Position numbers and translations under genes: made by a program | Origin: an uncultured Bacilli bacterium | GTDB taxonomy: Bacteria; Bacillota_I; Bacilli_A; RF39; UBA660 | DNA length: 61,015 nt | NCBI GenBank assembly: GCA_947628345.1 | Contig: CANQZM010000002.1 | Coordinates: 1-61,015, forward strand | Direction of reading: 5' to 3' | Notes under the pieces: model-generated | Database searches by the model: none | What the model was told of the DNA's origin: nothing | The model's input: the letters and a program-made list of their open reading frames with translations, nothing else | Part shown: positions 31,772-54,400 of the stretch, in pieces | Layout of the letters: the number at the start of each line of letters is the position of its first letter | Position numbering within the stretch: the first letter of the stretch is position 1

Positions 31772-31775
31772 TAAA

Positions 31776-32642
31776 ATGAACAAAAAGAAGTTATTTCTAA
31801 TTTTAATAAGTATAGTATGCTTTATCGGAATATTAATCGCAGTAGGTATAAATTTGATAAAATCAGTAATGATTGAATTAAGTGATAATAAATTATTAGA
31901 TACAGCTAACTATTTAACCGCAGTAGAAGTAGATAGTGAAGCTAAATTTATTATGTTTTTTAATAAACAAGAACAAATATCTAATATCATTTACTTAAAT
32001 AATAAAAGTGTTGATAGCTTGTATCAAAAAGATATTGAAAATAAGGATATAGCTACAAGTATTAATTTAATAATTGATAATTTAAATAAAAATGGTGTAT
32101 TTACAAGTGTTAAAAATGTTATTTTAATTGATTATGGTAATGATAAATTATTTTCTAAAGTAAAAGCCGAATTTAATAAACAATTTATAAATTATGGTAT
32201 AAGTAAAGATATATCATATGAGGTTAAAACGTTAAAAGAAGAAATATTAAGTTTAAATTTAAAATATAAGAATAGTCAAAGTAAAAATTTAAAACAATTA
32301 TATAATTATTCTCTAGATTTGATAAATAATGTCAAGAATGATGATTTTAAACAAGAAGAACAAAATATTTATGAAAATATTGATCAATATGCCCTAAATT
32401 TATATCATAAAATAGAAAAATATGCTGAAAAAATTGAAAATCAACCTAAAGATAGTCAAACAGGAATTGATATTACAACGATAAATGCAACAAGTGATTA
32501 TAATAATGCACTTTATGCTTTAAGTGATAGTTGGTATTATATAGAAAATTATCAAGTATATGCCTACATTCATTTTGAAATAGACAATATAAATTATGAT
32601 TATTGTTTTAAAAATGGAGATTATCAAAAAAATAAGTGTTAA
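31776..32642 (+). CDS. Hypothetical membrane-anchored protein
   Basis: MNKKKLFLILISIVCFIGILIAVGI anchor. RBS GAGGGA precedes ATG 31776. Confidence 0.45.
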   Translation: MNKKKLFLILISIVCFIGILIAVGINLIKSVMIELSDNKLLDTANYLTAVEVDSEAKFIMFFNKQEQISNIIYLNNKSVDSLYQKDIENKDIATSINLIIDNLNKNGVFTSVKNVILIDYGNDKLFSKVKAEFNKQFINYGISKDISYEVKTLKEEILSLNLKYKNSQSKNLKQLYNYSLDLINNVKNDDFKQEEQNIYENIDQYALNLYHKIEKYAEKIENQPKDSQTGIDITTINATSDYNNALYALSDSWYYIENYQVYAYIHFEIDNINYDYCFKNGDYQKNKC

Positions 32643-32673
32643 TTATAAAAATGATAAATATGAGGTGAAATTT

Positions 32674-34074
32674 ATGAAGTTTATTTCCAAAGTAATTGCT
32701 TTAATTTTAATAGGTAGTTTTTTACTCTTAATGTTTAAAATATATGAATTAAATATAATACCTGCTAATTATTTTTTAATAGTATCAGGAGTTATATTAT
32801 TCTTTGTATTAATCTTAATCTTTAAATTAGTTAGAAAAAAAACAACCTTATTTAGTAGAATTTTCTTTGATGTTGTTGCACTACTTTTTATTACTTTATT
32901 TGTTTATGGTTACACATATATGAATACTATTTATAATTTTATGAATGGGATTTTATCCAAAGAATATGAAATTAAAAATTATGTAGTAGTAGTTAATCAG
33001 AATAGTAAAGCTAAAAAAATAAATGATTTAAATAATCAAGAAATAGCCTATTTAGCTAGTGATAATAATTATAATAGTGTTAAAAAAAGAATAGAAAAGA
33101 CTATTAAGTATAAGGAAAAATCTTATACCAGTGTTGATTTGTTTACAAAGACTATAGAAAATAATTATAATAATGCTTTATTAATAGAAGAAGAATATTA
33201 TAATTTGTTAAAAGAAGAAAATACTTTAACTAATACTAGAGTTATTAAAACCTATAAAATTATTATTCAAAAAGAAATTAAAAAAACAAATAAAGATGAA
33301 GAAACACCATTTATATTATATATAAGTGGAATTGATACTTATGGAAAAATTACTAGTGTATCTAGAAGTGATGTTAATATATTAGCTTTTATAAATCCTA
33401 AAAAAGAAAAAATACTATTAGTTTCAATTCCTAGAGATTATTATGTAAAACTTCATAATACAACAGGTAATCAAGATAAATTAACTCATGCAGGTATTTA
33501 TGGTATTGATATGAGTATGTCAACAATTAATGATTTAATGGATATAGATATAGATTATTATTTAAGAATTAATTTTTCTACTCTAACTAAAAGTATTGAT
33601 TTAATTGGAGGAATTGATGTTTATTCAGATAAGACATTTACACCTGAATCTAATAAGAATATTGTGATTAAAGAAGGAATTAATCATATGGATGGACAAA
33701 TGGCATTAGCTTTTGCTAGAGAACGTTATGCTTATGCATCTGGTGATAGACATCGTGGTCAAAATCAACAAGCTATTATTGAAGCAATGATTAATAAGAT
33801 GACTGATATTGAAAACATTAATAAATATAAAGCAGTTTTAACCTCATTAGATGGTACCTTTGAAACAAGTATGTCTTATGAAGAATTAACAGATTTGTTT
33901 AAGATGCAAATTGCTAAAAGAATAAAGTGGGATATAGAATCTATTAGTTTAGATGGTAGTGGTGCGATGAGACCTACTTATAGTATGGGTTCTAAAAATT
34001 TATATGTAATGATACCTAATATAGATAGTATCAATAGTGCAAAATTAAAAATTGATGAATGTATGAGTAATTAA
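32674..34074 (+). CDS. LCP (LytR-CpsA-Psr) family cell-wall polymer transferase
   Basis: N-terminal TM segments, then SIPRDYYV and MDGQMALAFARERYAYASGDRHRGQNQQAII. ATG 32674 follows GAGGTGA. Confidence 0.85.
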   Translation: MKFISKVIALILIGSFLLLMFKIYELNIIPANYFLIVSGVILFFVLILIFKLVRKKTTLFSRIFFDVVALLFITLFVYGYTYMNTIYNFMNGILSKEYEIKNYVVVVNQNSKAKKINDLNNQEIAYLASDNNYNSVKKRIEKTIKYKEKSYTSVDLFTKTIENNYNNALLIEEEYYNLLKEENTLTNTRVIKTYKIIIQKEIKKTNKDEETPFILYISGIDTYGKITSVSRSDVNILAFINPKKEKILLVSIPRDYYVKLHNTTGNQDKLTHAGIYGIDMSMSTINDLMDIDIDYYLRINFSTLTKSIDLIGGIDVYSDKTFTPESNKNIVIKEGINHMDGQMALAFARERYAYASGDRHRGQNQQAIIEAMINKMTDIENINKYKAVLTSLDGTFETSMSYEELTDLFKMQIAKRIKWDIESISLDGSGAMRPTYSMGSKNLYVMIPNIDSINSAKLKIDECMSN

Positions 34075-34095
34075 TTTAGAAGAAGAGGAAAATTT

Positions 34096-34617
34096 ATGAA
34101 ATATGTAAGACTTAATAATGAAAGACTGAAACAACAAGATATTAATTCTGAAGTAATTAGAGTTAAAGCTATAATAATAAATAGTAAAGGACAACTTTTA
34201 ATTGGTAAAAGTTTTGGGTGTTATCAGTTAATAGGAGGTCACTTAGAACAAGATGAAACATTAGTTAACTGTTTAATTAGAGAAGTTAAAGAAGAGTCAG
34301 GAATTATTTTACAACCAAAAGATGTAGTACCATTTTTACTAATTGATGACTATTATAAAGATTATCCAAGTAAAGATAAAAATTTTAATTCTAGAATCTA
34401 TTATTTTATAATTAATACTGATCAAACTCCTAATATATCAAATACTAGTTATACTGTAGAAGAAAATATTGGTAAGTTTTCCCTAGAATATTTAGATTTA
34501 GATGGTATTGAGGCAGTAATTAAGCAAAATGTTAAAGAACATATTGATGCTACAGGAATTGCTAAGACATTATTAATAGCTATTAGGGAATATAAAAAGA
34601 TGACTAGTAGAAAATAA
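34096..34617 (+). CDS. NUDIX hydrolase
   Basis: Nudix box GGHLEQDETLVNCLIREVKEESGI. Confidence 0.8.
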   Translation: MKYVRLNNERLKQQDINSEVIRVKAIIINSKGQLLIGKSFGCYQLIGGHLEQDETLVNCLIREVKEESGIILQPKDVVPFLLIDDYYKDYPSKDKNFNSRIYYFIINTDQTPNISNTSYTVEENIGKFSLEYLDLDGIEAVIKQNVKEHIDATGIAKTLLIAIREYKKMTSRK

Positions 34618-34742
34618 TTTATTAAATAATATTGATTTTGGATTTAAAAATTATTATAATTAATTTCAGATAATAGTTAAAGTTATAAGGTATGAAACTC
34701 AACTATATATATTTAACATATTTTAAATAAGGGTGTTGTATT

Positions 34743-36251
34743 ATGAAGAAGTATATCTATGATAACAGAGAAAAAATTTTTAATTGGGTAGTTTTAATAA
34801 TATATTTAGCTATTACTGGAATAGCAGTAATGTCTCATGAAGCATATGAAAATGAGGCTCAATCTTTTTTAATAGTTAGAGATTTGAGTATTCCCCAAAT
34901 TTTATCTCAATTAAGATATGAAGGGCATTCATTCCTTTGGTATATGGTTTTAGTTCCTTTTATAAAGTTAGGTTTGCCAATAGCTTATCAAAATTTTATT
35001 TCGTGGGCTTTTGGAATTGCAACAGTAATATTAATTTTGAAAAAATTTAATGTAAGTAAATTATTGAAAATAATTATAATATTTAGTTCTGGATTATTGT
35101 ATTTTTATACAGCTATTGCTAGAACATATGCGATGATTCCACTTTTATTGGTATTAATTGCTTTAATTTATGAAAAACGTGATCAACATCCATATATTTA
35201 TGCTATTTTGTTAGCACTATTAGCTAATACCCATCTCATTATGGTTCCTACAGCTACCATGTTGGCTATTTTTTACTGGGGCAAGAAACTTGTAACTAGA
35301 AATATTAATATGAAAAAACGTGATTTCTGTTTAAGTCTTTTAATTTTTATAATTGGTTTAACTTTATTTGGAATAATAATAGGACTATCCATGAGTAATA
35401 TGGAATTAGTCAATGATAATATGAATATAGAAGGAATTTCTAATTATCAGGGATTTTATAAAAAAATTGATACAACCCTTCATACATATGCTGATTTCTT
35501 ATGGGGAAAAGTATCTTCACCAGATTATATATTTACATTATTAATATTAGCATTGATATTTTGTTTAATAGGAATTATAGATGATGTTGAACAAGGGTTG
35601 ATATTTTGGGCTCAATTACTATTTTGTATTATAATTCATTCCTTCTTTTGGATTATTATTTCTGAAAGAGTTATGGTTATAATATATACATTAATGTTTT
35701 GGATATTGAATTCAACTAATAAAGAAAATAAAGGCTTGTTTTCTTCAGCTAATTCTAAGGTAACTTTACCAACATTAGCTTTGATAATTATAGTAGGTCT
35801 TTCAACATTGCCTACATATAAGATTATTAAGGAAGATGTAATTGGTAATTTTTCTACAGGTAAAAGTTTTGCTTCTTATATTGAAAAAAATATTGATGAA
35901 GGAGCAACAATACTTTGTACTTTTAATACTCAACACCAACCTATAATTGGATATTTACCTAAGGATAAATATAAATTTTACCTAGTAGGACCTGAACGTG
36001 AAGGAACTTATGTAACTTGGAATAAAAATTGGAATGCAACAGTAACTGATCAACAATTACTAAAAGCTATAAATAAACAATTGGAGAAACATAAAGAAAC
36101 ATATGTCTTATCAACTAAATCCTTTGAATATTATAAATATGATGGACTCGTTACTAAAAGATTGTTAAGTGTAGAGGATGTAGGATTATTATATTCAAGA
36201 TATAATTTTGTAGAAGCATTTAATTTATATAAAGTAGAAAAGACTACTTAA
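34743..36251 (+). CDS. Polytopic membrane protein, possibly a GT-C (ArnT/PMT-like) glycosyltransferase
   Basis: More than 10 TM segments. The first-loop acidic motif (YENEAQSFLIVRDL) resembles GT-C enzymes. The assignment is weak. Confidence 0.4.
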   Translation: MKKYIYDNREKIFNWVVLIIYLAITGIAVMSHEAYENEAQSFLIVRDLSIPQILSQLRYEGHSFLWYMVLVPFIKLGLPIAYQNFISWAFGIATVILILKKFNVSKLLKIIIIFSSGLLYFYTAIARTYAMIPLLLVLIALIYEKRDQHPYIYAILLALLANTHLIMVPTATMLAIFYWGKKLVTRNINMKKRDFCLSLLIFIIGLTLFGIIIGLSMSNMELVNDNMNIEGISNYQGFYKKIDTTLHTYADFLWGKVSSPDYIFTLLILALIFCLIGIIDDVEQGLIFWAQLLFCIIIHSFFWIIISERVMVIIYTLMFWILNSTNKENKGLFSSANSKVTLPTLALIIIVGLSTLPTYKIIKEDVIGNFSTGKSFASYIEKNIDEGATILCTFNTQHQPIIGYLPKDKYKFYLVGPEREGTYVTWNKNWNATVTDQQLLKAINKQLEKHKETYVLSTKSFEYYKYDGLVTKRLLSVEDVGLLYSRYNFVEAFNLYKVEKTT

Positions 36252-36294
36252 ATTGAAATTAGGAAATATTAACCTAAAATAAGGCGGGTGATTT

Positions 36295-37212
36295 ATGAAT
36301 TATTTAGAAGAATTACAAAAATTAAGAAAGAAAATTATAACAAAAACAATAATTACATATTTGTTTATTGTTATATTGTTTATTGCTATAGTTATTATTA
36401 TTTCATCTGAATCATCAACTGAACTTAATTATTTTATCATATATTTAATATTTCTAATTGCATTTGGTACTTTTATAGTAAAATTTGTTACCAGTAAAAA
36501 TGTAAAAGAATATAAAAAAATATATAAGAAAAATATCATCTTAGAGACTTTTAAAACTGTATTTACTGATATTAAGTATAATCCAGAATCTGGATTATCA
36601 GAATCAGTTATCATTAATACAAGAATGATGAGTGTTGGTGATAGGTATTATTCTAATGATCATATATCGGCAAAATATAAAAATGTAAATTTTGAATATG
36701 CTGATGTTGAAATTCAAGACGAAATAACCGATAGTGATGGTGATAGTCATATAGTAACGATTTTTAAAGGACAATGGTTTATTTTTGATTTTAATAAAAA
36801 ATTTAAAGCTAATGTCCAAGTTTGTGAAAAATCTTTCGATGGGGCTAGAAGAGGTGTAACCACCTATAGTAATGGTATTTATAAAAAAGTTAACATGGAG
36901 AATGTAGATTTTAATAAAAATTTTAAGATATATGCAGAAAATGAGGAAGATGCATTCTATATATTAACTCCAAATATGATGGAAAAAATAAAAAAAATTA
37001 ATGAAGAATTATCAGGTAATTTACTATTTTGTTTTATAAATAGTAAGTTGCATATTGGTTTACATAGTGGAAAAGATTTGTTTGAACCTAATGTTTATAA
37101 AAAAATAAATTTAGAAGCGGATAAGGAAAAGATTTTAAATGAAATAAAAATAATAACTGAATTTATTGATATATTAGATTTAGATAATGATTTATTTAAA
37201 AGGAGAGATTAA
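36295..37212 (+). CDS. Two-TM protein, DUF3137-like LemA partner
   Basis: N-terminal TM pair followed by a soluble domain. Lies immediately (2 nt) upstream of a LemA gene. The family name comes from memory of this gene pairing. Confidence 0.4.
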   Translation: MNYLEELQKLRKKIITKTIITYLFIVILFIAIVIIISSESSTELNYFIIYLIFLIAFGTFIVKFVTSKNVKEYKKIYKKNIILETFKTVFTDIKYNPESGLSESVIINTRMMSVGDRYYSNDHISAKYKNVNFEYADVEIQDEITDSDGDSHIVTIFKGQWFIFDFNKKFKANVQVCEKSFDGARRGVTTYSNGIYKKVNMENVDFNKNFKIYAENEEDAFYILTPNMMEKIKKINEELSGNLLFCFINSKLHIGLHSGKDLFEPNVYKKINLEADKEKILNEIKIITEFIDILDLDNDLFKRRD

Positions 37213-37214
37213 AA

Positions 37215-37757
37215 ATGGATATTTTAATAGTAGTAATTTTATTGATAATTCTAGTAGTAGTAATTGGCTATATAGTAATTTCTAATAAACTTAATGTTTT
37301 ACAGGTGAAAATTGATGAAGCAGATTCTGGTATTGATGTTGCTTTAACTAAAAGGTATGATGTATTGACTAAGATGATAGAGGTTGTTAAAAGTTATGCT
37401 AAACATGAAAAAGAAACATTATTTGAAATTGTTAAACTTAGAAAAGGAATGAGTTTAGAAGATAAGAGTAAAGTTAATGAAAAAATGGATAAAGCTATGG
37501 AAAAAATAACAGTACTAGCAGAATCTTATCCAAAATTAAAATCAAATGAAAATTATAAAACTTTACAACAATCAATTGTTGAAGTTGAAGAACATTTACA
37601 AGCTGCGAGAAGATTATACAATTCTAACGTTTCTATGTTCAATCAAATGATTGTTACATTTCCTTCTAATATAGTCGCTAGTTCTAAATCATTAAAGGCT
37701 AAACCTTTTTTTGAAGCAGATGAAACTAAAAAAGCAGACATTGATATAGACTTATAA
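37215..37757 (+). CDS. lemA: LemA family protein (second copy)
   Basis: N-terminal TM segment, YAKHEKETL and AARRLYNSNVSMFNQMIVTFPSNIVA. Confidence 0.85.
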   Translation: MDILIVVILLIILVVVIGYIVISNKLNVLQVKIDEADSGIDVALTKRYDVLTKMIEVVKSYAKHEKETLFEIVKLRKGMSLEDKSKVNEKMDKAMEKITVLAESYPKLKSNENYKTLQQSIVEVEEHLQAARRLYNSNVSMFNQMIVTFPSNIVASSKSLKAKPFFEADETKKADIDIDL

Positions 37758-37826: not shown

Positions 37827-37859
37827 CTCTTTCAACATAATTACTATTAGAGGTGAATT

Positions 37860-38918
37860 ATGTTTTTTAAAAAAATAGATAAGAGAATTAGGATAGTTTT
37901 AATTATTATTTTAATTTTATTTATATCTATAGTTTTACGTGTATTTAAGATACAAGTATTTGATTATAATAAATTAAAAAAGTTGGCAGATAATTTATGG
38001 AGTAGGGACTTAGAAGTAGCTGCGGATAGGGGTAAAATCCTAGATCGAAATGGAAATGTTTTAGCTGATAATGTAACAACAACTAGTTTGGTTTTAGTTC
38101 CTAATCAAATTAAGGACAAAAAAACTACATCAGAAAAATTAGCTAAAATATTAGGAATTAGTGTAAAACAAATGGACAAACATGTTTATAAAAAAACATC
38201 TATCGAGAAAGTACATCCAGAAGGTAGAAGACTTTCTTTTGAAATTGCCGATAAAATTAATTCATTAGAATTAGATGGAGTGTATTTAGTTAAGGAATCT
38301 AAAAGATATTATCCTTATGGTAATTTGCTTTCTAATTCATTAGGTTATGTTGGAATAGATAATCAAGGATTATCGGGATTAGAATTACAATATGATGATG
38401 TTTTAACTGGTACTAGTGGAGCTATTAAATATTTTTCAGATGCTAAAGGTAATCAACTTAATTTATCTGATGTTTATGTTGAACCTGTAAATGGTATGAA
38501 TATTCAATTAACAATAGATTTGAAAATTCAACAGTCAGTTGAACGTGAATTAAGTAATATTGTTGATATGTTTCAACCTGATATGGCATTAGCTTTAGTA
38601 ATGAATCCAAAAACTGGAGAAATTTTAGCAATGGGAAGTAGACCGGATTATGATCCCAATAATTATCAAAATTATTCTGTAGAAAGCCTAAATAGGAATT
38701 TACCAATTTTTGCATCATATGAACCAGGAAGTACTTTTAAAATTATTACAACATCGGCAGCAGTTGAGGAAAAAGTAGTAGATTTAGAAAAGGATCATTT
38801 CTATGATTCTGGTTCAGTTAATGTTGAAGGTTCTGTTTTAAAATGTTGGAAAGCTGGTGGTCATGGTGAACAAACATTTTTACAGGTATTACAAAACTCT
38901 TGTAACCAAGAGTTTTAA
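37860..38918 (+). pseudogene. spoVD: 5' segment of the split spoVD-like class B PBP gene. Native sequence ends at the Asn codon 38904-38906; as integrated, the ORF reads QEF-stop from element DNA.
   Basis: TM anchor, PBP dimerisation region, SxxK (GSTFK) and SxN (NSCN) just before the junction. The KTG motif is missing. Confidence 0.85.
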
Positions 38919-38968
38919 CAAGAGATACTAATTGGATAAATTTTCTATTATAAAACCAAAATTAAAAT

Positions 38969-38996
38969 ATTGACAAAATTTAATATAAAAGTATAA
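38969..38996 (+). promoter_or_regulatory. Near-consensus promoter inside the element's left end
   Basis: TTGACA (38969-38974), 16-nt spacer, TATAAT (38991-38996). A second TTGATT-18-TATAAT lies at about 39100-39130. Confidence 0.55.
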
Positions 38997-39213
38997 TATA
39001 AGGAAAAAAACACAAAGCAGATCAATTATACTTTTAATGACAAATTATACACAAATTTACAAGTAATTTACAAACGATAAATAAAATTAAAATAAAAACT
39101 TGATTAAGCTGTATACGGTATTATATAATAAAAGTACATATTGATTGTGTTTTTAGGAAAGAGGTGGATAAAATAAAATACCAAAACCTAAAAAGAAAGG
39201 AAGGAGTAAAAGG

Positions 39214-40125
39214 ATGAAAGATAAAAAAACTATAATAGGAATAATAGTAGGATTAATTATATTAATTATAATAATTCTATTATTAAGAGGTTGTACTAGA
39301 AAAGAGTATACAATTAAATTTGATACAGATGGTGGAAGTGTTATTGAATCTATAAAAGTAAAGGAAAATGAAAAAATAGAAAAGCCATCTGATCCAACAA
39401 AAGAAGGTTATGATTTTGCAGGATGGTATTATAATGATAAAAAATTTGATTTTAATACTAAAGTTAAAAAGAATATGACTTTAAAAGCAAAATGGAAATC
39501 AGATGGTACTGGAATAGTACTAAAAGATACAGACTTAGAAGTTACTGTAGATGATGAATTAACATTAGAGATAGAATCATTACTAAAAGGTCTAAAGAAA
39601 GAAGACTTAATTTGGGAATCAAGTGATGGCAGTATAGTTACAGTAGATAAAGATGGTAAAATAAAAGCTTTAAAAGCGGGTAAAGTAACAATTACTGTAA
39701 AAACAAAAGATGGAAAAAGAAAGACAACAGTAACAGTTACAGTAAAAGAAAAAGAACAACCAGTAGAAGAACAACAAAATACAGCTGCAAATTCAGGTTC
39801 AAGTGGTAGAAGACAAACTGGTGGAGGATATACTCCATCAACTCCAAGCAATCCGCAACCAAGCAATCCACAACCAGTAGCGCCATCATATGTACTCATT
39901 ATGAAAAGAGTACCTAATGAACTTAACTCAGGTTCATTTCAATGGAATTTATCTTGCTCAGGTGTAAATCTTAGTGATGTTTCTCGTATAGATTATAATG
40001 GTACTAACTTTAATCCTAAGGATGGTAGACTTGCTGATCCTTTGGTTAATACTGGTGCAGGTCAAGCAATACTTCACTTGAGTGATGGTAGTACAGTAAC
40101 AGCAACAGTACAATATGTATATTAA
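39214..40125 (+). CDS. Membrane-anchored surface protein with a Listeria-Bacteroides-type repeat and a Big_2-like Ig domain
   Basis: TM IIGIIVGLIILIIIILLL. EGYDFAGWYYNDKKFDFNTKVKKNMTLKAKW. WESSDGSIVTVDKDGKIKALKAGKVTITVKT. A P/S/N-rich linker. Confidence 0.65.
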   Translation: MKDKKTIIGIIVGLIILIIIILLLRGCTRKEYTIKFDTDGGSVIESIKVKENEKIEKPSDPTKEGYDFAGWYYNDKKFDFNTKVKKNMTLKAKWKSDGTGIVLKDTDLEVTVDDELTLEIESLLKGLKKEDLIWESSDGSIVTVDKDGKIKALKAGKVTITVKTKDGKRKTTVTVTVKEKEQPVEEQQNTAANSGSSGRRQTGGGYTPSTPSNPQPSNPQPVAPSYVLIMKRVPNELNSGSFQWNLSCSGVNLSDVSRIDYNGTNFNPKDGRLADPLVNTGAGQAILHLSDGSTVTATVQYVY

Positions 40126-40145
40126 AAAAGGAAAGGAATGATAAT

Positions 40146-42677
40146 ATGAAAAATAAATATATAAAATTATTTATAATAGCTATTATAACAATGTTCATTT
40201 CGATTGTTCCTACTTATGCTAAAGAAGTAACTTTAGAAAGTAAAGGAAATGAAAGAGATACATTTGATTTTATAATAAATAGAGAAAATCCTGATGCAGC
40301 GTATGTATATTTAATAGGAAAATATGCATTTACATCAGCACATGAAATGGGATTACAAGATATGATGTTAGCCGCAAGGAGTATACAATTAACTGAAGGA
40401 AAATTAAAAGATAAAGAAATACCTGAAAAACTTGATAATATGACAATTTACTTATTTAAACATGCAAGTGGTTCAACAGAATGGAAATCACAGATAGTAG
40501 TTGGTAAAACACAATTACCAGAAAAATTTAATGTTAAATATATTGATTATCATTATGTTAAAAAAGACAAAAAAGTAGATACGGATGAAATGGTAAAAAC
40601 AGCAATGGAAAAGATATCTACAGAGATGTTTAATGTTAAAAATGAAAAAATTTCTGAAAATGAAGTTACAATAGATATTGAAACAGAAAAATTAAAAGAA
40701 AAAATCGTAAAAGGTATGGGTTCAGGTGTATTTACTGCTTTAACTAGTTTAGTAGAAAATACAAAAGTAGAATCAATTACATTTGAATATAATGGTGTAG
40801 CACCATTAACTATTGATAGTAATAATTTAGATAGTAGTAAAATGGTAGAATGGCTTAACAATAATAGTCAAGCAATATTTGGAAAAAATGTAAGTGATTT
40901 AATATTAGCAGATTTACTAGATAGAGAATTTAAAGCTACTATTAATTTAGGAGAAAGTGAGAAAAATTCTTATGTTTCTAAAAAAAGTGCAACACCAAAT
41001 GAATCTTATACAATTAAATTTACAGGAAAAAGACAAAAAGTAGATACTGATGAAATAGCAAATGGAGCTTTTAAAGACCTAAAAAGTAGTATCTTTGATT
41101 TTGATAGTGTGACTTTTGAAAAAGGTACTGCAACAGTAAAAATACAAGACGGAAAATTACAAGAAAATATCGTAAAAGGTATGAATTCAGGGGTAACTAA
41201 GTTATTGAAAACACTAATAAGTAATGAAAATGTAGAATCAATAGATTTTATATATAATACAGGCAGTGAAGAAATTAAATATACTCTTAAGGAAAATTTT
41301 GATGAAGCAGAATTAATAAACTGGTTCAATGATAATTGCAAAAAAATATTTAATTATGAAGTTGGAGAGGCTAAAATAGTAGATTTAATAAATAAATCAT
41401 TTAAAGCAAAAATAAATTTAAAAAATTATGCGGAAAAGAAAGAAGAAAATCCAACCGAATATACAATAAAATTTGATGGTCAATTACCAGTGGTTGATTC
41501 AGAAGCAATATTAAATGATGCAATGAGTAGAGTAAATAAAAAATTTTTTGAAAAAGATGATAGTAGATCTTCAGGTCAAACCATTGTAATAAAGGTAAAA
41601 GAAATAGAGACAACAATTGAAAAAGGAATGAATTCAGGAATATATCCAATTTTAGAAAAATTATCTAAAACTCAGGGAATACAATCAGTTGATTTTTCAT
41701 ACAATGACAATGTTAAATTTACTTTAGATCATGATACGGATTTTTCAAAGATGCTTGAGTGGTTTAATCAAAATAAAAAGCAAATTTTTGAAAAAGATAC
41801 TGAAATAACATTAGCAGATTTACATAATAAAACATTTACTGTAACACTAAATGTAGGAAGAGTAGGAAAATTAAAAGATACTGATAAAAAAACATATGAA
41901 ATTAAATTATTAAAAACACATGAGGTTACATTCCATGATGATAAAGCAAAAGCACCTTTAAAAGAAAAAGAAGTAGTATCCGTTTATGATAATGAACCAA
42001 TTCCAGAGGAAGAAGTTACAAAAAGATCTAAAAGGAGTACTGATGTTGTAACTGATGTATTCTTAGGATGGTATGAGGAAATTGAAGAAGGAGAAGATAA
42101 AGAAGACAAATTCAACTTCGAAACACCAATAACTGAAGATATGGAATTAGATGCTCATTGGGGAACTAAATTTACACCAGAAGAACAACAAAAAGTAACT
42201 AAAGCTACTCAAAGTGCTTTAGATATTATTAATAGTCATAGTCATGAAGGAAAATTGAAGGTAGATGTTAGTAACGGAAAAATTATCATAACTAATATGG
42301 GAGATGATAATCCTAGTTTAGTCAGTATGCTAACTGGTTCAGGTGTTTTGACAGCTATGACGAATTTATTAGATACAAACAAAACAAATATTGTTTCGTT
42401 AACAATGAAATTTGAAAGTGATGATGTTAAGGAATCTGCTGATATAGATACAGAAGTACTTGATGACCCTTATAAATTTGTAGCTTCATTTGATGATATA
42501 TATAAAAAAGTAATGGGCAGATCAGAAGTAGAAGGAATGTTAATAACTAGTGCAACTTGGAAAGATTTATCATCATTTATTAATAATTTAAAAGTTAAAG
42601 TAAATCTTAAAGATGGAAAAGTATTTGATGATGAAAACAACGGTGAATATACATTTGAACTAAAGAATAAACAATAG
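40146..42677 (+). CDS. Secreted 843-aa protein built from four copies of an uncharacterised ~140-aa module
   Basis: Signal peptide MKNKYIKLFIIAIITMFISIVPTYA. Repeated VDTDE...KGM(G/N)SG...ES(I/V)xF...W(L/F)N...INL...YTIKF units. One Listeria-Bacteroides-like repeat (FLGWYEE...DAHW). Confidence 0.6.
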   Translation: MKNKYIKLFIIAIITMFISIVPTYAKEVTLESKGNERDTFDFIINRENPDAAYVYLIGKYAFTSAHEMGLQDMMLAARSIQLTEGKLKDKEIPEKLDNMTIYLFKHASGSTEWKSQIVVGKTQLPEKFNVKYIDYHYVKKDKKVDTDEMVKTAMEKISTEMFNVKNEKISENEVTIDIETEKLKEKIVKGMGSGVFTALTSLVENTKVESITFEYNGVAPLTIDSNNLDSSKMVEWLNNNSQAIFGKNVSDLILADLLDREFKATINLGESEKNSYVSKKSATPNESYTIKFTGKRQKVDTDEIANGAFKDLKSSIFDFDSVTFEKGTATVKIQDGKLQENIVKGMNSGVTKLLKTLISNENVESIDFIYNTGSEEIKYTLKENFDEAELINWFNDNCKKIFNYEVGEAKIVDLINKSFKAKINLKNYAEKKEENPTEYTIKFDGQLPVVDSEAILNDAMSRVNKKFFEKDDSRSSGQTIVIKVKEIETTIEKGMNSGIYPILEKLSKTQGIQSVDFSYNDNVKFTLDHDTDFSKMLEWFNQNKKQIFEKDTEITLADLHNKTFTVTLNVGRVGKLKDTDKKTYEIKLLKTHEVTFHDDKAKAPLKEKEVVSVYDNEPIPEEEVTKRSKRSTDVVTDVFLGWYEEIEEGEDKEDKFNFETPITEDMELDAHWGTKFTPEEQQKVTKATQSALDIINSHSHEGKLKVDVSNGKIIITNMGDDNPSLVSMLTGSGVLTAMTNLLDTNKTNIVSLTMKFESDDVKESADIDTEVLDDPYKFVASFDDIYKKVMGRSEVEGMLITSATWKDLSSFINNLKVKVNLKDGKVFDDENNGEYTFELKNKQ

Positions 42678-42716
42678 CGTTAATGATAGTTTAAATTAGT
42701 TATAATTGAAATATTT

Positions 42717-42739
42717 AGGATGATTTTAATCATCCTTTT
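42717..42739 (+). terminator. Intrinsic terminator
   Basis: AGGATGAT-ttta-ATCATCCT followed by TTT. Confidence 0.65.
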
Positions 42740-42773
42740 ATAGTGCTTTAATGTAAATAAATAATAGATAAAT

Positions 42774-42797
42774 AAAAAAGGTAGTATTACCTTTTTT
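42774..42797 (+). terminator. Second intrinsic terminator
   Basis: AAAAAGGTA-gtat-TACCTTTTTT. Confidence 0.6.
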
Positions 42798-43031
42798 ATT
42801 TATACAATACATAGTACGATAGGTTATTATGTATTTTTTGTGATAGAAGTATAATAATAGGTCAAAAAAAGGCGAGAAAATATTGATAGAATTAAAGAAG
42901 TTATTAAAAGAAAAGAAAAATATGAAATCTACTTTTCTGCAACAGGAAGGAATGTTAAATGAAAAAATATATTCAATTTAAGTTCTTTTTTATAACTTAA
43001 CTTAATATTTTTAAATGAGAGGAGGTAAATT

Positions 43032-43223
43032 TTGTTAACAACACAATTATATACTAATGTGATGGAGTTACCGAAAGAGTACCAAATTTTGAATTTAAGA
43101 ATGTTGCTTAATAAAGAACTTTATGAAAAAAAAATTATAACATTTGATATCTTCGATAAAATGGAAAAATTACTTATAAAAAAGATGAATAAAATTATCC
43201 TAGAAAATACTAAAGAATACTAA
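43032..43223 (+). CDS. 63-aa protein directly upstream of the recombinase; candidate accessory or directionality factor
   Basis: TTG start behind GAGAGGAGG. Its end lies 17 nt before the recombinase ATG. The helical K/E-rich C-terminus (ELYEKKIITFDIFDKMEKLLIKKM) looks SHOCT-like by eye. Confidence 0.5.
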   Translation: MLTTQLYTNVMELPKEYQILNLRMLLNKELYEKKIITFDIFDKMEKLLIKKMNKIILENTKEY

Positions 43224-43240
43224 TATTAGGAGGACTACAT

Positions 43241-44923
43241 ATGGATATTATACAAGCAAGACAACAATTATTATTGGGAACAACGATTTATGATATGAAC
43301 TTAAGAGTGGCTGATTATGGTAGGGTTTCAACAGATAAAGATGATCAATTAAATTCATTAGAAAACCAAATTAATTATTTCAGTGATATGATTTCTGGTG
43401 TAAAAAAGTGGACACATGTAAAAAGTTATAGTGATGAGGGTCTTTCTGGTACTCAAGTTACTAAAAGAGAACAATTTCTGAAAATGATTGAAGATGCAAG
43501 ACTAGGTAAAATTGATTTAATTCTTACCAAGGAAGTTTCACGTTTTGCCCGTAATACAGTAGATAGTATAAAATATACTCAACTTCTCTTAAAGTATGGT
43601 GTAATTGTATTTTTTATTTCTGATAATATAAATACAATTTATCCAGATAGTGAATTTAGATTAACTTTAATGGCTTCAATGGCCCAAGATGAGGTAAGAA
43701 AATTATCTGAAAGAGTTAAATTTGGTATAAAAAGAAGTATTAAAGATGGAAAATTAGGTGGTGGTGCACTTACTGGATATAATAAAAAAGATGGGAAATT
43801 GGTTATCAATGAAAAAGAAGCTCCTATAATTAAAATGCTTTTTTCCCTATATGCGACTGGAAATTATGGATTTACTAAAATAGGAGAAGAATTAGCTAAA
43901 CATGGTTATTATACAAAAAAAGGTAAAATATTTAGTAATACTACTTTAAAGAAAATGTTAAAAAATTATAGATATAAAGGATATTATACAGCTAATTTAA
44001 GTACAGTAGAAGATTATAAAACGCACAAGAAAAGGTTTAATCCAAAAGAAGAGTGGATTATCTATAAAGATAAAACTGGTAACATTCCAGCTATTGTATC
44101 AGAGGAATTATGGGATAAGGCAAATATTATATTGGAAGAGAGGAGCAAAGTTTGGAATAAAAACGTATTAAACCAGGAATTTTATTTAAAAAATAGAACT
44201 TATACATCGAAATTATTTTGTAGTGAACATAATACTACGTTTATTAGATCTGCAACTGGAAAAAGAAAAAATAATCCTGTATGGCAATGTAATGAATATT
44301 TAAGACACGGGATTAAAGGTTGTAAAACTCCAATATTATCTGAAAAATATTTAGATCAAATTTTTACAGCAATTATAGAAAAAATTATAGATGATAAGGA
44401 TCAACTATTAGATATAATTTTGAATGATTATATTAATTTAATAAAAGAAAAAAATAAAAAAATTGATAATGAGGATCTTAATCATAAAATAAAAGAAAAG
44501 GAAATAATTAAGGAAAGATTACTTGATATGTCTTTGAAAAACATTATAAGTTATGAAGAATTTATTAATAAAGATCAAAAAATAAATTCTGAATTACTTA
44601 ACTTAAAAACAAAATTAATTAAATCAAGAGACAAAGAAAATAATTTAACTTATAAAAAAAATATAAGGGATATATTAAAAAAAGAACTAAAAAAACAAAT
44701 GAATATAAAAACTAATATAGGTAAATATTTTAATTTATTTGTAAGTAAAGTAATTGTAAGTAAAATAAATGATAATAGAAAACATTTAAAATTACAAATT
44801 ATTTTTAATTTTAAGAAGAATTATGAAGAAATAGAAATTAATTTAAATCAGAACAATATTTACTATACTAATAAAAAAGTATCTCTTGTTGACAATCAAG
44901 GAACCCAGGGTTTGTTAAATTAG
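43241..44923 (+). CDS. Large serine recombinase (SpoIVCA/SprA/TnpX class)
   Basis: Resolvase catalytic domain with YGRVSTDKDDQLNSLENQ, a recombinase domain, a zinc-ribbon Cys cluster (CSEHN...WQCNEY...GCKT) and a coiled-coil tail. The stop at 44921-44923 lies beyond the attR core. Confidence 0.9.
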   Translation: MDIIQARQQLLLGTTIYDMNLRVADYGRVSTDKDDQLNSLENQINYFSDMISGVKKWTHVKSYSDEGLSGTQVTKREQFLKMIEDARLGKIDLILTKEVSRFARNTVDSIKYTQLLLKYGVIVFFISDNINTIYPDSEFRLTLMASMAQDEVRKLSERVKFGIKRSIKDGKLGGGALTGYNKKDGKLVINEKEAPIIKMLFSLYATGNYGFTKIGEELAKHGYYTKKGKIFSNTTLKKMLKNYRYKGYYTANLSTVEDYKTHKKRFNPKEEWIIYKDKTGNIPAIVSEELWDKANIILEERSKVWNKNVLNQEFYLKNRTYTSKLFCSEHNTTFIRSATGKRKNNPVWQCNEYLRHGIKGCKTPILSEKYLDQIFTAIIEKIIDDKDQLLDIILNDYINLIKEKNKKIDNEDLNHKIKEKEIIKERLLDMSLKNIISYEEFINKDQKINSELLNLKTKLIKSRDKENNLTYKKNIRDILKKELKKQMNIKTNIGKYFNLFVSKVIVSKINDNRKHLKLQIIFNFKKNYEEIEINLNQNNIYYTNKKVSLVDNQGTQGLLN

Positions 44924-45762
44924 GTCAATTGTTGGGTAAAGAAAAATTATTTTCATATATTGATAAATTTGGGTTTGGTAAAAAAACTAATATTGATTTA
45001 ACCGGAGAAGCAAATGGTATTATCTTTTCATTAGATCGAGTAGGAAATGTGGAACTTTCAACAACTGCATTTGGTCAAGGAGTAAGTGTAACACCAATTC
45101 AACAAGTGACAGCTATTTCATCAGTAGTTAATGGAGGATATTTATATCAACCTTATATTTTGAAATCAATTAATGAAAATATTTCTAATAATATAATAGA
45201 AGAAAAATATAAACATTTAGTAAGGCGAACTATTAGTAAAGAAACTTCAGCCATCATGAGAAAAGCTTTAGAAAGTGTTGTTGCCGTAGGTGGAGGTAAA
45301 GCTGCTTATATTGATGGTTATAGAATTGGTGGTAAAACTGGAACAGCCCAAAAAGTAAAAGATGGTAAATATTTAGTCAATAATTATATTATGTCATTTG
45401 TAGCTATTGTCCCATCTAATAATCCTGAAGCAGTTTTATATTTAGCTATTGATAATCCTAAAAATACAGCTCTTTTATCTAGTTATACTACTACTCCGAT
45501 AGCTAGAAGAATTTTATTAGATATTATTGATATTTTGGGAATTGAAAAACAAGAAGGAGGTTTAGCAAAAGACTTAGATTATACTGATAAAATTATGTAT
45601 GAAGTTCCCAATGTAGTAGGCATGAAAGTAAAAGATGCCAAAAAAATGTTAGTAAATTTTCAATTGGAATATTCAGGTAGTGGAGATTATATTGCTTCTC
45701 AATCACCAGAAGCTTTTGAAAAATTAGAAGATCAGGGAACTGTTAGATTATTACTAAAATAG
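44905..45762 (+). pseudogene. spoVD: 3' segment of the split spoVD-like PBP gene
   Basis: The frame is open from 44902 (N PGFVKLGQLLGKEKLFSYIDKFGFG). KTG (GGKTGTAQ) and a single C-terminal PASTA domain (YEVPNVVGMKVKDAKKML...). Confidence 0.85.
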
Positions 45763-50065: not shown

Positions 50066-51169
50066 ATGAAAAAAAACTTTGATTTAATACTATGTATTGC
50101 CGTAATAATGCTGATATTCTTTGGAGTTATTATGATTTATTCAGCATCATCTATATGGGCTAATTATAAATTTGATGATAGTTTTTATTATGTAAAGCGT
50201 CAATTAGTTTTTGTAATAATTGGGATTGTTATTATGTTTTTAGTAGCTAAAATTAACTATAAGCTCTATTTTAAATATGCAAATAAAATTTTATTAATTT
50301 GTTTTATTTTATTGATTTTAGTTGTTATTCCAGGAATAGGTAGTATTAGAAATGGAAGTCGTAGTTGGTTTGGGATTGGTTCTTTTGGAATTCAACCTAG
50401 TGAAGCAGCTAAATTAGGAATGATTATATTTACCAGTAAATACTTAAATAATAGTACCAAGTTTTTGAAAAGTTATAAAGAGGGTGTTTTCCCAATTTTA
50501 GGTATTTTATTTACTTTCTTTTTCCTAATTATGTTGCAACCTGATTTAGGAACTGGTGTGATTTTAATTATGTCTATTATTGCTTTACTATTTATTGCAG
50601 GTGTTAATATGAAATTCTTTATTGGTGGGGGAGTATTAGGAGTAATTGGAATTGTGATTTTAATTTTAATAGCGCCGTATCGAATGGATAGAATTACCTC
50701 ATTCTTAAATCCCTGGAAAGATCCATTAGGTACAGGGTTTCAAATAATTCAAAGTTTATATGCCATTGGACCTGGAGGATTATTGGGTACAGGTTTTGGT
50801 AATTCAATTCAAAAACATTTTTATTTACCTGAACCCCAAACTGACTTTATTTTTTCTATTATTTCAGAAGAATTTGGAATTATGGGAGTATTGATTGTAG
50901 TTTCTTTGTTTTCTGTTATAATTTATCGAGGATTAAAAATTGCTTTGGGATGTAAGGATGGATTTTCTAAATATTTAGCCTTTGGTATGACTTTCCAATT
51001 AGCTTTTCAAACAATCATGAATTTAATGGTAGTAATCGGTATGATACCAGTAACAGGGGTAACTTTGCCTTTCTTATCTTATGGAGGATCAAGTTTATTA
51101 ATTACTTTAGTAAGTATAGGGATTTTATTAAATATTTCTAAGTATCAAAATAATAATATAGAACTTTAG
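50066..51169 (+). CDS. SEDS family protein (FtsW/RodA/SpoVE), second copy
   Basis: IQPSEAAKL, LQPDLGT, LPEPQTDFIFS and TLPFLSYGGSS. Confidence 0.85.
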   Translation: MKKNFDLILCIAVIMLIFFGVIMIYSASSIWANYKFDDSFYYVKRQLVFVIIGIVIMFLVAKINYKLYFKYANKILLICFILLILVVIPGIGSIRNGSRSWFGIGSFGIQPSEAAKLGMIIFTSKYLNNSTKFLKSYKEGVFPILGILFTFFFLIMLQPDLGTGVILIMSIIALLFIAGVNMKFFIGGGVLGVIGIVILILIAPYRMDRITSFLNPWKDPLGTGFQIIQSLYAIGPGGLLGTGFGNSIQKHFYLPEPQTDFIFSIISEEFGIMGVLIVVSLFSVIIYRGLKIALGCKDGFSKYLAFGMTFQLAFQTIMNLMVVIGMIPVTGVTLPFLSYGGSSLLITLVSIGILLNISKYQNNNIEL

Positions 51170-51409: not shown

Positions 51410-51454
51410 ATAGGCAGATTGGAAGAGACCAATCATTAGTAAGGGGAAATGTTT

Positions 51455-54400
51455 ATGAAAAACAAAGAAAAGCTATATTATTCATTAGGAATAGGAATAA
51501 TCATAGTGGCAATCATCTTTTTATGCGTAGTATTTTTCAATAAAAAATATACAATAACTATGTATAATGATGGAGAAGAGTATAAGGTAATTAAAATAGA
51601 AAAAGGGGAAAAATTAAAATTACCAGATGCTCCAGAAAAAGAAGGATATACTTTTAGTGGATGGTATGTCGATGGAAAAGAATTTGACAGTGATACAAAG
51701 ATAACAAAAGATTTAGAGTTAGAAGCAAAGTGGGTAAAGAATACTTATACTGTAGTCTTTAAAACTGGAACAGGTAGTGACATAACAAAAAAAGTAAAAT
51801 ATAAAGATAAAGTAGCAAAACCAAGCAATCCAACAAAAGAAGGCTATGAATTTGTCGGATGGTTTATAGGTAATAAAAAGTATAACTTTGCTAGTAAAGT
51901 AACCAAAGATTTAGAAATAACTGCTAAGTGGACAAAGGTAAGTACTACAAGTAAAACAAATAGTACAAGTAATGTCAAAAGAACAGAAAGAAATGCTGAA
52001 CAATCAGTAGCATACCAAGTAGAACATTATTTAATGGATACAAAAGGTAAATATAGTGATAAACCTAATTATATAGATTCATATACTACTGTTGTTGGTG
52101 CAAAAGTAAACCCAATTGTTCATAGTTATAAAGGATTTACCTCACCAATTGTTCAAACAGTAACAGCTGGAAATAATACTGTAGTTAAATATTATTATGA
52201 AAGAAATAAGTATCAATTAACTTTAAATAATTCAGAAGGAATTACTGCAGTTAAAGGTAATGGAACATATTATTATGATCAGGAAGTAGTTATTGAAGCA
52301 ACTTTACATGAAGGTTATTCATTTGCTGACTGGTTAAATGGTAGTATGAATGTAGCAGATACATTGAAAACAACAGTTAAAATGAGTGATAGCAACTTAA
52401 GTTTAACAGCAACTGCAAAGATAAATGATACAACTATTATCTACTATGATGAAAAAGGAAATGAAATAGCAACAGATATTGATGCAGAACCTGGTAAAAC
52501 AGTAAAAGAAAACACTAATGCAAAAGCTTATGAAATAAAAGAAGGTTACACATTTGCTGGTTGGTATACTGCCGATGGAACAAAATTTGATTTTGATAAT
52601 AATACAATGCCAATAAAAGGTGGATTAAAATTAACTGCTAAATTTGAAGCAAATGAATACACAGTACATTTTGATTCAAATGGTGGAACTGAATCAATGA
52701 ACGACCAAACATTTAAGTATGATGATGGTCAAGCATTAAATTCTAATGAATTTACTCGCGAAGGATATACATTCCAAGGTTGGAGTAAAGAGGCAGCTGG
52801 AACAACAGTTGACTATAAAGATGGAGCAGTAGCTAATTTTGCAACAAGTGATGAAATAACATTATATGCCGTATGGAAAGCTAATACTTATACTGTAAAA
52901 TTTGATGCTAATAACGGAACAGGTCAGATATCAAATCAAAAATTTACTTATGATGAACAACAAGAATTAACTGCTAATGAATTTACTCGTGAAGGATATA
53001 CATTCCAAGGATGGAGTAAAACTCAAAGTGGAGAAGTTGAATTTGGAGATAAATATAAAGTTGGAAATTTAGTAACTGAAAATAATGGCACATTAACTTT
53101 ATATGCAGTATGGAAAGCCAATGAATATACGGTTAAGTTTGAAGCTAATTTTGAAGGTTACAATGAAGATACCAATGGTACAATGGAAGACCAAAAATTT
53201 ACTTACGATGATGGTCAAAAATTAACTGATAATAAATTTACTCGTGAAGGATATACATTCCAAGGATGGAGTACAACTAAGAAAGGTCCAAAAGAATATA
53301 ATGATGGAGAAGCTAAGAATTTTACAACTAAAAATACAACAGTTACTCTATATGCAGTATGGAAAGCCAATGAAGTAACTATTCATTATCATGGCAATAA
53401 TAAAAATCATGATGAAAATACTCAAACATTTACTGTTGAGTCAACAGAATCAAAAGATAATGGCTTTACAAATAGTTTTAGAGTAACTTATCAAGATAAG
53501 GATGGTAAAAATCCAACAAAAACAGAAGATATAGTAGCTGAATTTGAATGCTGGTCTGAAACTGAAGATGGAGAATGTATAGATACAACTGAATTTAAAA
53601 ACGAAGTAATAGAAGCTCTTAATAAAAAAGACGGAGAAGAATTTGATTTATATGCTGAATGGACTGCAGATATTGAAATAAAGAATCCTGAAGAAGACTC
53701 ACAACGTGAATTTGTTGGTTGGTATTTAAATGATAAACCAATTGACGAAATGCTTGATAGTTCTGAACATGGTAAGTATACAATTGATACAGATATTGTA
53801 ATTGTAGCAAAATACCTAAAAATCCTTGATTTAGATAATATAATTAAAGATTTTGTAAAAGATGATACTGATATTTATACATTAAACTTAGATAGCAATA
53901 TAATTACAATTGATATTAAAAAACCAAATATTAAAATTTCTGATTTACAAGCAATAAAAGATCTTAATGAGTTTTTAGTACAAAATGCTGATATTATTAC
54001 GTCAAATAAAGTTGCTGAAAGTAATAGTTCAAAGGACCTTGAAGAATATTTAAAAGAAATTGGTAAACATCAATTAAGTTATTTATATGGCAAAAATTTA
54101 AGCCTTACAATTAAATTAGATGAAAAATTAGCTAAATTTGAAAAAAATAGCGAAATCAAAGAAAAAACTTATACGATTAAATTTACTAATAACTCTAAAA
54201 ATATAATTACAGTAAAAGAATATAATGAATTTGCTGAAAAAATGTTGCCATTAATAAATACTCATCAAAGTACAAGATATAATGTAAGTGTTAATGACAG
54301 TAATATAAAAGTTTTATATGCTGATTCAACTAGTACTTTAACTTTAGCAAGTAGTTTACAAGGTTCTGGAATTTTAACAGTTTTTCAACAATATTTAGCT

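Follow-up and report, generated by a model that had tools for sequence, protein, structure and literature searches.

An element with a large serine recombinase interrupts spoVD at a catalytic-motif codon in uncultured gut Bacilli: a candidate sporulation intervening element

Background

When a gene used for sporulation is cut in two by inserted DNA, is it lost, or is it put together again in the cell that needs it? This question is raised by spoVD in a 61,015-nucleotide stretch of DNA from an uncultured Bacilli bacterium of the RF39 lineage (GenBank contig CANQZM010000002.1; "the window" refers to this whole stretch). Within the Asn codon of its SxN motif, the gene is interrupted by a 5,998-bp element that carries a large serine recombinase (LSR) gene. 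A preliminary description, made from the letters of the window, took this insert for a sporulation intervening element, i.e., DNA that is excised in the mother cell and kept in the germ line. Here, we report a computational analysis of the locus and its relatives.

Several sporulation genes are known to be interrupted in this way: sigK by skin, spsM by SPβ, spoVFB by vfbin and spoVR by vrin (PMC4191935), gerE by gin (PMC5595907), and yabG by yin (PMC10747680). In addition, spoVK is the integration site of an SPβ-like phage (bioRxiv 10.1101/2021.11.22.469490). Skin, SPβ, vfbin, vrin, gin and yin each employ an LSR, plus a small recombination directionality factor (RDF) where this has been studied (PMC4191935, PMC5595907, PMC5025042, PMC10747680), and skin elements have only the recombinase in common (bioRxiv 10.1101/2022.02.25.481979). 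In the preliminary description, spoVD was not among the known host genes of such elements. In agreement with this, the literature searched contained no published spoVD-intervening element and no paper combining spoVD with an intervening element.

In a survey of uncultured Bacilli, sporulation was predicted for RF39 and for parts of RFN20 and ML615J-28, and spoVD was scored as reduced or absent in RF39 (PMC10868615). The product of spoVD is a class B penicillin-binding protein that is specific to sporulation and serves synthesis of the spore cortex. In Bacillus subtilis, spoVD is σE-dependent and SpoIIID-repressed (PMC517825).

Results

Two fragments of spoVD join into one complete gene

In the integrated state, the 5' part of the gene is a 352-aa open reading frame (ORF; 37860-38918) that reads ...LQNSCN-QEF-stop, with the stop at 38918. 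It matches PBP_dimer and the first third of Transpeptidase (Pfam profile positions 2-104 of 299). Beyond the insert, a frame that is open from 44902 resumes with N-PGFVKLGQ... and, in a profile search, matches Transpeptidase positions 104-298 and one PASTA domain. The cut falls between SxN and KTG inside a single catalytic domain. The downstream fragment has neither a start codon nor a ribosome-binding site (RBS) at the junction, and no signal or transmembrane segment. The upstream ORF had been described as the N-terminal part of a penicillin-binding protein (PBP) with a membrane anchor, STFK, NSCN and QEF-stop, and the downstream frame as its exact continuation with GKTGTAQ and one PASTA domain; the ORF and its Pfam match bear out the former, and the contiguous Transpeptidase positions the latter.

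Removal in silico of 5,998 bp (38906-44903) joins 37860-38905 to 44904-45762 and yields an ORF of 634 aa, as the preliminary description had proposed. In a search of 5.8 billion proteins, the rejoined protein aligned with intact orthologues of 634-640 aa over 100% of its length, at 75-89% identity and with no internal gaps, and the junction peptide QVLQNSCNPGFVKLGQ was invariant among them. Neither half carries a further lesion.

The rejoined protein scores 696.7 bits on the equivalog model TIGR02214 (SpoVD; cut-off 688), and an upstream 714-aa PBP with two PASTA domains (29627-31771) scores only 366.7. At 50066-51169, a SEDS gene reaches 459.3 bits on the SpoVE model and so exceeds its cut-off of 448.8. 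The dcw genes follow the order mraZ-rsmH-(ftsL)-pbpB ... spoVD-gtrA-mraY ... spoVE, which is the B. subtilis arrangement plus an island. The model score, this gene order and the single PASTA domain confirm the earlier assignment of the gene to spoVD.

Four further, independent metagenome contigs carry an identical recombinase integrated at this very position, and all five assemblies of the window species are in the integrated state. Given these contigs, and about 30 more species with the same junction, the structure is no artefact of assembly.

The same codon is occupied in many species

Relatives of the LSR were sought in one genome per GTDB species, and 80 loci were returned (loci are cited below by L number). 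LSRs at 60-71% identity to that of the window were found in 34 species-representative loci. In 30 of these, the gene lies directly upstream of a spoVD 3' fragment starting at P350; in two others (L026, L040) the LSR and the small ORF that precedes it (ORF63) stand beside a 5' fragment ending at N349, in reversed orientation, and two further contigs end too early. This places the ORF63-LSR module at the same spoVD codon in 32 of 32 informative loci from other species. The hosts are metagenome-assembled genomes labeled as uncultured Bacilli, Mollicutes, Tenericutes, Erysipelotrichaceae and Ca. Onthousia (Bacilli incertae sedis in NCBI), and they come from the guts of rabbits, humans (Hadza), chickens and ruminants. 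The SpoVD proteins of these hosts are 47-88% identical to that of the window.

Elements in these relatives are 3.0-11.4 kb long and share only ORF63 and the LSR. The remainder is variable cargo, including ABC transporters, radical-SAM/SPASM maturases, M29 peptidase, two-component systems and large surface proteins. Divergence among the LSRs hardly follows that among the host SpoVD proteins (Mantel r = 0.19), which indicates that the elements move horizontally; strict co-speciation of element and host was rejected on the same value. Some host pairs are 80-90% identical and have LSRs about 60% identical, and in one pair the LSRs are 96% and the host SpoVDs 86% identical.

A search with the C fragment of the window returned 120 protein clusters (90% identity level). 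All were N-terminally truncated, many with an element-derived leader before NPGFV. The first residue lies near codon 350 in at least 66 clusters and near codon 292 in about 41. Given these 120 truncated clusters, split spoVD is common in public metagenomes.

The fragments remain open and motif-complete

In about 30 species, stops are absent and indels almost absent from those N and C fragments that are complete or nearly so, and STFK, SCN and KTGT are retained in every fragment. The sole stop occurred in one short boundary alignment (L025). Genes in three pieces, and a genome in which both spoVD and spoVE are cut (L035), are likewise intact. G+C content is 26% in the window and 25.5% in the element. 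Since an unselected 634-codon frame would not stay open in DNA of 26% G+C, the split gene appears to be under selection.

Other recombinase lineages cut spoVD and spoVE elsewhere

The SxN codon (site B) is one of several targets. Other LSR lineages, 39-52% identical, cut spoVD at three to four further conserved motifs (Table 1), at least four LSR lineages converge on the gene, and spoVD is in three pieces in L004, L019, L018 and L106. The 90%-identity cluster of the window N fragment contains truncations of 298, 352 and 418 aa together with an intact protein of 640 aa.

Site A provides both states within one species. In the L001/L102 species (L102:10001-17214), occupied and empty alleles coexist and differ by a clean 5,281-bp insertion, with flanks 99% identical and a 9-bp overlap at the junction. 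The inserted element also terminates in a small ORF and an LSR. The occupied allele (L102-L107) was found in 116 collection blocks, and 68 contigs were counted for the cluster member.

In L035 (13597-18070), which also has a site-B element in spoVD, spoVE is in two parts (residues 2-237 and 232-366), both intact. Its 3.4-kb insert carries an XRE-family regulator and a 413-aa LSR that adjoins the 3' fragment, and the two ends share the core CCAGGTG.

Recombinase and attachment sites

The LSR has the domains Resolvase (PF00239), Recombinase (PF07508) and Zn_ribbon_recom (PF13408) and matches the phrog_95 integrase (1e-104). Its best NCBIfam matches, CcrB, CcrC and XisF, are all far under the cut-off. 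Both the recombinase at the end of the insert and the 63-aa ORF before it had been noticed in the preliminary description, and ORFs and domain matches agree. The last codons of the LSR lie in host DNA past the crossover, so that its predicted C-terminus, read from the sequence, would change from ...GTQGLLN in the integrated form to ...GTKSFNKRY after excision.

The terminal inverted repeat AGTATCTCTTG ... CAAGAGATACT is present at the ends of every element. The reconstructed attP is a 50-bp inverted repeat, AGTATCTCTTG-N13-AA-N13-CAAGAGATACT (11+13+AA+13+11), with its center at bases 1 and 2 of the Asn349 codon. In all 15 loci having both junctions, AA is the sole dinucleotide identical between attL and attR. 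A spacer of exactly 13 nt separates AA from the P arm (attR) in every one of these loci, and from the P' arm (attL) in the 12 loci whose arm pattern was recognized. This geometry (symmetric, about 50 bp, 2-bp crossover) is that expected of large serine integrases. The preliminary description had placed the exchange at two 4-bp AACC cores, which end at 38907 and 44905. The deletion length and the join derived from them hold; judged from the aligned junctions, the true crossover is almost certainly AA, and AACC is a coincidental extension in the window element. Excision would be expected to give the junctions CAAAACTCTTGTAACCCAGGGTTTGTT (attB) and CAATCAAGGAACCAAGAGTTTTAAC / TTGACAATCAAGGAACCAAGAGTTTTAACAAGAG (attP).

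The element contains no phage structural, lysis, replication or conjugation genes, its PHROG matches outside the integrase being Ig domains only, and the viral contigs of IMG/VR contain no relatives of the LSR. A prophage origin was considered and is unsupported by these viral contigs and by matches in phage GenBank entries of at most 44% identity. The insert is a non-phage, site-specific integrative element, and its insertion is precise.

ORF63 and the region upstream of it

ORF63 is directly upstream of the LSR in 32 loci and has the motif LPKEYxILxLRxxxNKELYExKIISxDIYxKMQKLLxKKM. Small ORFs before the site-A LSRs and before an LSR of 41% identity (L044) share homology with ORF63 (blastp, down to 4e-6), and the family co-occurs with LSRs down to 40% identity. 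As homologous small ORFs precede divergent LSRs, ORF63 and the LSR form a co-evolving module. ORF63 had zero matches in Pfam, NCBIfam and PHROG, and a large protein database returned near-identical copies only. This absence is uninformative, because known RDFs have neither sequence nor fold in common (PMC12286644). From its position, its conservation and the precedents of CD1234, SprB, GirX and the yin candidate, ORF63 would be the RDF of the LSR.

In most relatives, ORF63 is preceded by a hairpin (GAACTCA-N4-TGAGTTC) with a T-run, then AACTTAATAnTCTTAAT, a strong RBS and a TTG start; base pairing in the hairpin is backed by compensatory changes, seen in L032, L034 and L018. The window copy retains only the hairpin 3' arm, and its ORF63 leader folds no better than shuffled sequence (z = -0.09). 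Two further terminator-like hairpins (42717-42800) lie between the cargo operon and the excision module. The hairpin and terminator features before ORF63 look like insulation against read-through from cargo or spoVD. By eye, σA, σH, σF/σG and extracytoplasmic-function readings of the GTTCTTTTTT...AACTTAATAnTCTTAAT region were tried, and none fitted.

A subset of relatives (L007:225-400, L011-L016, L021, L024, L029 and L030) has a conserved leader upstream of ORF63 in which a distal block, CTCTTTCTCATTAAG, is complementary to the ORF63 Shine-Dalgarno region. A terminator hairpin is embedded in the leader, and AACTTAATATTTTTAAAT occurs there a second time; the window element has no such leader. 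By its sequence features, this leader looks like a cis-regulatory RNA.

Upstream of spoVD

A CATA-type -10 box is a hallmark of σE/σK promoters in B. subtilis and in the clostridial consensus. In 14 of 16 distinct spoVD upstream regions, CATA occurs at -22 to -25 (in one at -30), against a background of 16.6% of other genes in the same loci (binomial p about 1e-9). The candidate box of the window is given in Table 1. By analogy with B. subtilis (PMC517825), spoVD would be expressed in the mother cell of the host.

Cargo and neighboring genes

From left to right, the element consists of attL, a σ70-type promoter, a two-gene cargo operon, two terminators, the control region, ORF63, the LSR and attR (Table 1). 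Homologues of both cargo genes are present in the L010 element. The 843-aa cargo protein has about four internal repeats of roughly 150 aa each (KGMxSGV...L...VESIxFxYN). The host region 51449-54691 also encodes a Listeria-Bacteroides-repeat protein, of 1,080 aa. An Rfam search of the window gave zero matches.

Table 1. Coordinates of the interrupted spoVD gene, its element and further insertion sites in relatives
Feature	Position	Strand	Description
spoVD candidate -10 box	37836-37843	+	CATAATTA; 24 nt upstream of the start; σE/σK-type candidate
spoVD 5' segment	37860-38905	+	codons 1-349, to the AA of Asn349; transmembrane anchor, PBP_dimer, S291TFK, S347CN
attL	38880-38929	+	host B arm, crossover AA (38904-38905), 13-nt spacer, P' arm CAAGAGATACT (38919-38929)
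σ70-type promoter	38970-38997	+	TTGACA-16-TATAAT, 12/12, before the cargo operon; consensus match only
Cargo gene 1	39214-40125	+	303 aa, membrane-anchored or secreted; Listeria-Bacteroides repeat and Big_2 domain
Cargo gene 2	40146-42677	+	843 aa, signal peptide, internal repeats; matches no known family
Two terminator-like hairpins with T-runs	42717-42736 and about 42779-42800	+	second one read from sequence
Conserved control region	42980-43025	+	AAGTTCTTTTTT (hairpin 3' arm and T-run), AACTTAATATTTTTAAAT, RBS GAGAGGAGG
ORF63	43032-43223	+	candidate RDF; 17 nt before the LSR
LSR	43241-44923	+	560 aa; final 6 codons and stop in host DNA past the crossover
attR	44878-44927	+	P arm AGTATCTCTTG (44878-44888), 13-nt spacer, crossover AA (44902-44903), host B' arm
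spoVD 3' segment	44906-45762	+	codons 350-634 and stop; remaining transpeptidase with K493TGT, one PASTA
Site A	within STFK codons		L004 (40-3838), L019 (202-5549), L040; other LSR lineage
Site C1	F405-G406		L037 (5259-12332); other LSR lineage
Site C2	T411-P-I-Q		L018 (11686-16483), L038, L013, L015, L016, L024; other LSR lineage

Among the sister elements, three paralogous radical-SAM/SPASM maturases, as well as FemAB accompanied by a two-component pair like VanR/VanS, are carried as cargo at L008:1535-8903 and L032:6931-9769. A Tet-like ribosomal-protection GTPase also occurs there (512 bits, under the cut-off of 775). Resistance functions, or functions in ribosomally synthesized and post-translationally modified peptides, are thus possible inside spoVD.

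In the two loci with reversed orientation (L026:4073-12706, L040:7162-14044), ORF63-LSR adjoins attL and is antisense to spoVD, and the att arms have their usual polarity. In L040, mraY is divergent and upstream of spoVD, an arrangement that suggests an inversion.

Compared with L084, one of the four other contigs of the species and 99.3% identical to the window across 8.4 kb, the window has about 30 single-nucleotide differences bunched in 120 bp (45537-45655) of the PASTA-coding part of spoVD. These look like a recombination patch. The two also differ by a 24-bp indel in the 843-codon cargo gene (42508-42531).

Between pbpB and spoVD, the window carries an island (31761-37757) with a 293-aa ORF without a Pfam match, LCP, NUDIX, a 502-aa membrane protein and a DUF3137-LemA pair. 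Its content differs from that of a sister species (L001), so this dcw stretch is variable. Elsewhere in the window, comEA and comEC are located at 19262-21971; natural transformation is a conceivable route for elements that lack transfer genes of their own.

Discussion

With moderate confidence, we interpret the insert as a spoVD intervening element that is excised by its LSR, with ORF63, in the mother cell, so that the gene is rejoined during sporulation. In this mechanism, the LSR would be turned excisive by ORF63 acting as RDF and would recombine attL with attR in the terminally differentiating mother cell. Excision would release a 5,998-bp circle and restore the 634-aa spoVD, whose own σE/σK-type promoter would then drive its transcription for synthesis of the cortex, while the forespore chromosome would retain the element. 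The mobile family would thereby use catalytic-motif codons of spoVD, and of spoVE in one genome, as harmless landing sites. We infer the mother-cell timing of excision, the role of ORF63 and sporulation of the host. The interpretation put forward in the preliminary description is strengthened by the precise LSR-made insertion, the intact halves and the CATA box of spoVD; the junctions that it expected were not found in the collections searched, and the excision module has no recognizable σE/σK-type promoter.

Several observations speak against excision in the mother cell. Excision and circle junctions were sought in assembled collections (IMG/VR, JGI metagenomes, fetched loci and protein clusters) and none was found. 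The attP pattern GTATCTCTTG-N26-30-CAAGAGATAC had no occurrence in IMG/VR or in the fetched loci, and the LSR cluster contained no protein with the excised-form C-terminus. Among 5.8 billion proteins there was no intact spoVD allele of the same species, the best intact orthologue being 89-91% identical. These negatives are weak, because DNA from mother cells is rare and such collections are unlikely to capture it. A CATA-type σE/σK box precedes ORF63/LSR in only 2 of 33 loci, and this absence is the weakest link of the developmental model. The only sporulation genes in the window are spoVD and spoVE. In 18 loci (L044:9763-12355 and 17 from L045-L082), LSRs of 40-43% identity, each with an ORF63-like small ORF, lie beside a non-sporulation gene that is convergent, apparently truncated and, judged from its translation, ABC substrate-binding-like; modules of this wider clade thus have no intrinsic bond with sporulation genes. 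If insertions are recent and repeated, the fragments could be intact partly for that reason and not through selection. Finally, L024 (11745-17459) has an intact 634-aa spoVD and, 3.6 kb upstream of it, a 207-nt middle piece of the gene (codons 350-418) between a site-B attR and a site-C2 attL. The piece is 96% identical to its counterpart in the intact gene, and either was left over from a composite arrangement or arose by duplication.

Two further searches belong here. Fourteen matches to the attP pattern in JGI metagenomes proved to be palindromes of no relation to the element, and neither an LSR nor ORF63 lies close to them. In L035 and L036, the DNA downstream of the cluster held no sporulation gene except spoVE.

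If the insertion is instead a plain knockout, spoVD is a conserved attB in hosts for which sporulation is dispensable or being lost, and excision is rare and serves transfer only. Such a history would account for the undetected excision product, for an excision module without a recognizable sporulation-type promoter, for related modules beside a non-sporulation gene, and for empty and occupied alleles within one species; horizontal transfer means that some insertions may be young, and sporulation has been lost repeatedly in these Bacilli lineages (PMC10868615). It would not readily explain why the fragments are open and motif-complete in about 30 AT-rich, fast-evolving species (except for the L025 stop), why every element keeps a conserved, insulated excision module when the cargo varies, or why split alleles are so common (at least 100 clusters). 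The intact three-piece genes (L004, L019, L018, L106), the genome with both spoVD and spoVE cut, and the convergence of at least four LSR lineages on spoVD weaken a knockout further; it is disfavored, and we regard it as unlikely.

Excision could also be real and not confined to the mother cell, acting as a stochastic or condition-triggered switch of sporulation competence that is followed by re-integration or loss. In Clostridium botulinum, yin is excised at all time points in a heterogeneous population (PMC10747680). Presence/absence polymorphism inside one sister species, the lack of a σE/σK box in front of ORF63, and the subset leader, whose terminator and anti-Shine-Dalgarno segment suggest signal-dependent control, would fit such a switch. 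Germ-line excision would lose an element without replication or transfer genes, yet the family is widespread and stable, and five of five assemblies of the window species are integrated; a switch therefore seems improbable. That the junction is a chimeric assembly, or that the halves are expressed separately and assemble in trans, is very improbable. Nothing beyond the window being an assembled contig speaks for either, and the junction is shared by dozens of species and by four further contigs of independent origin. Without start, RBS, signal or transmembrane segment, the C fragment could not reach the membrane exterior, and SxN and KTG would be separated within one catalytic domain.

Mother-cell excision of the element may be part of a wider pattern. 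We tentatively suggest that, across a broad clade of small-genome, uncultured gut Bacilli, germ-line spoVD and spoVE are routinely in two to four pieces that are assembled in the mother cell by several independent and orthogonal LSR/ORF63 modules. The targets would be STFK, SxN, FGQG and TPIQ, and GPGG in spoVE, and the whole would resemble the rearrangement program of heterocyst nif genes. Such a pattern would explain why spoVD was scored as reduced or absent in RF39 (PMC10868615), to which split genes might contribute, and why spore formers are under-called in these lineages.

We class the element with a large new family within the known sporulation intervening elements, for which spoVD would be a new host gene. 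Like the spoVD element, gin (gerE of Bacillus cereus ATCC 10987; LSR GirC and RDF GirX; PMC5595907) is a non-phage island in a mother-cell sporulation gene, with an LSR and a small accessory factor, a short core with inverted repeats and variable non-viral cargo. It differs in its 28.6-kb length, its three recombinase genes and its occurrence in the B. cereus group, whereas members of the spoVD family are 3-11 kb long, have one LSR and occupy one codon in many species. Excision of gin has been shown experimentally, whereas that of the spoVD element is an in silico join only.

A small RDF accompanies skin in sigK (SpoIVCA in B. subtilis; CD1231 with the RDF CD1234 in Clostridioides difficile; PMC5025042). 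Skin is prophage-like and cuts a regulator, whereas the spoVD element lacks phage genes and cuts an enzyme active-site motif; unlike in skin, its RDF candidate has no recognizable σE-type promoter. The likeness of its LSR to SpoIVCA is one of class, the best NCBIfam matches being the sub-cut-off ones named above. SPβ in spsM (SprA/SprB), vfbin, vrin and yin likewise split a late mother-cell gene precisely by means of an LSR. Excision then reconstitutes the host gene. These are active or defective prophages of one or a few taxa each (PMC4191935, PMC10747680), whereas the inserts in spoVD are cargo islands of small size that are widespread among uncultured gut Bacilli and can number up to three in a single gene.

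A comparison can also be drawn outside sporulation. In Anabaena and Nostoc, heterocyst elements (XisA, XisF, XisC) interrupt nif, fdxN and hupL, genes that are needed only in the terminally differentiated cell. There, too, several independent elements exist and genes are cut more than once, and one of the recombinases, XisF, is an LSR that figures in the best NCBIfam matches of the window recombinase. Phylum and developmental program differ.

With these data, spoVD and probably spoVE join sigK, spsM, spoVFB, spoVR, gerE and yabG as sporulation genes split by mobile DNA. At least 100 fragment clusters, and four or five sites in one gene, point to a lineage-wide habit rather than a strain oddity. 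Gene-content surveys are affected, since split genes can score absent. The panel of distinct LSR, small-partner and att sets, with a mapped 50-bp attP, attB and crossover, offers raw material for orthogonal genome engineering. Accessory cargo, some of it resistance-like, may ride through the spore germ line cheaply. For the hosts, intact frames in cut genes suggest that these reduced-genome, never-cultured gut Bacilli still sporulate, which bears on their transmission between hosts.

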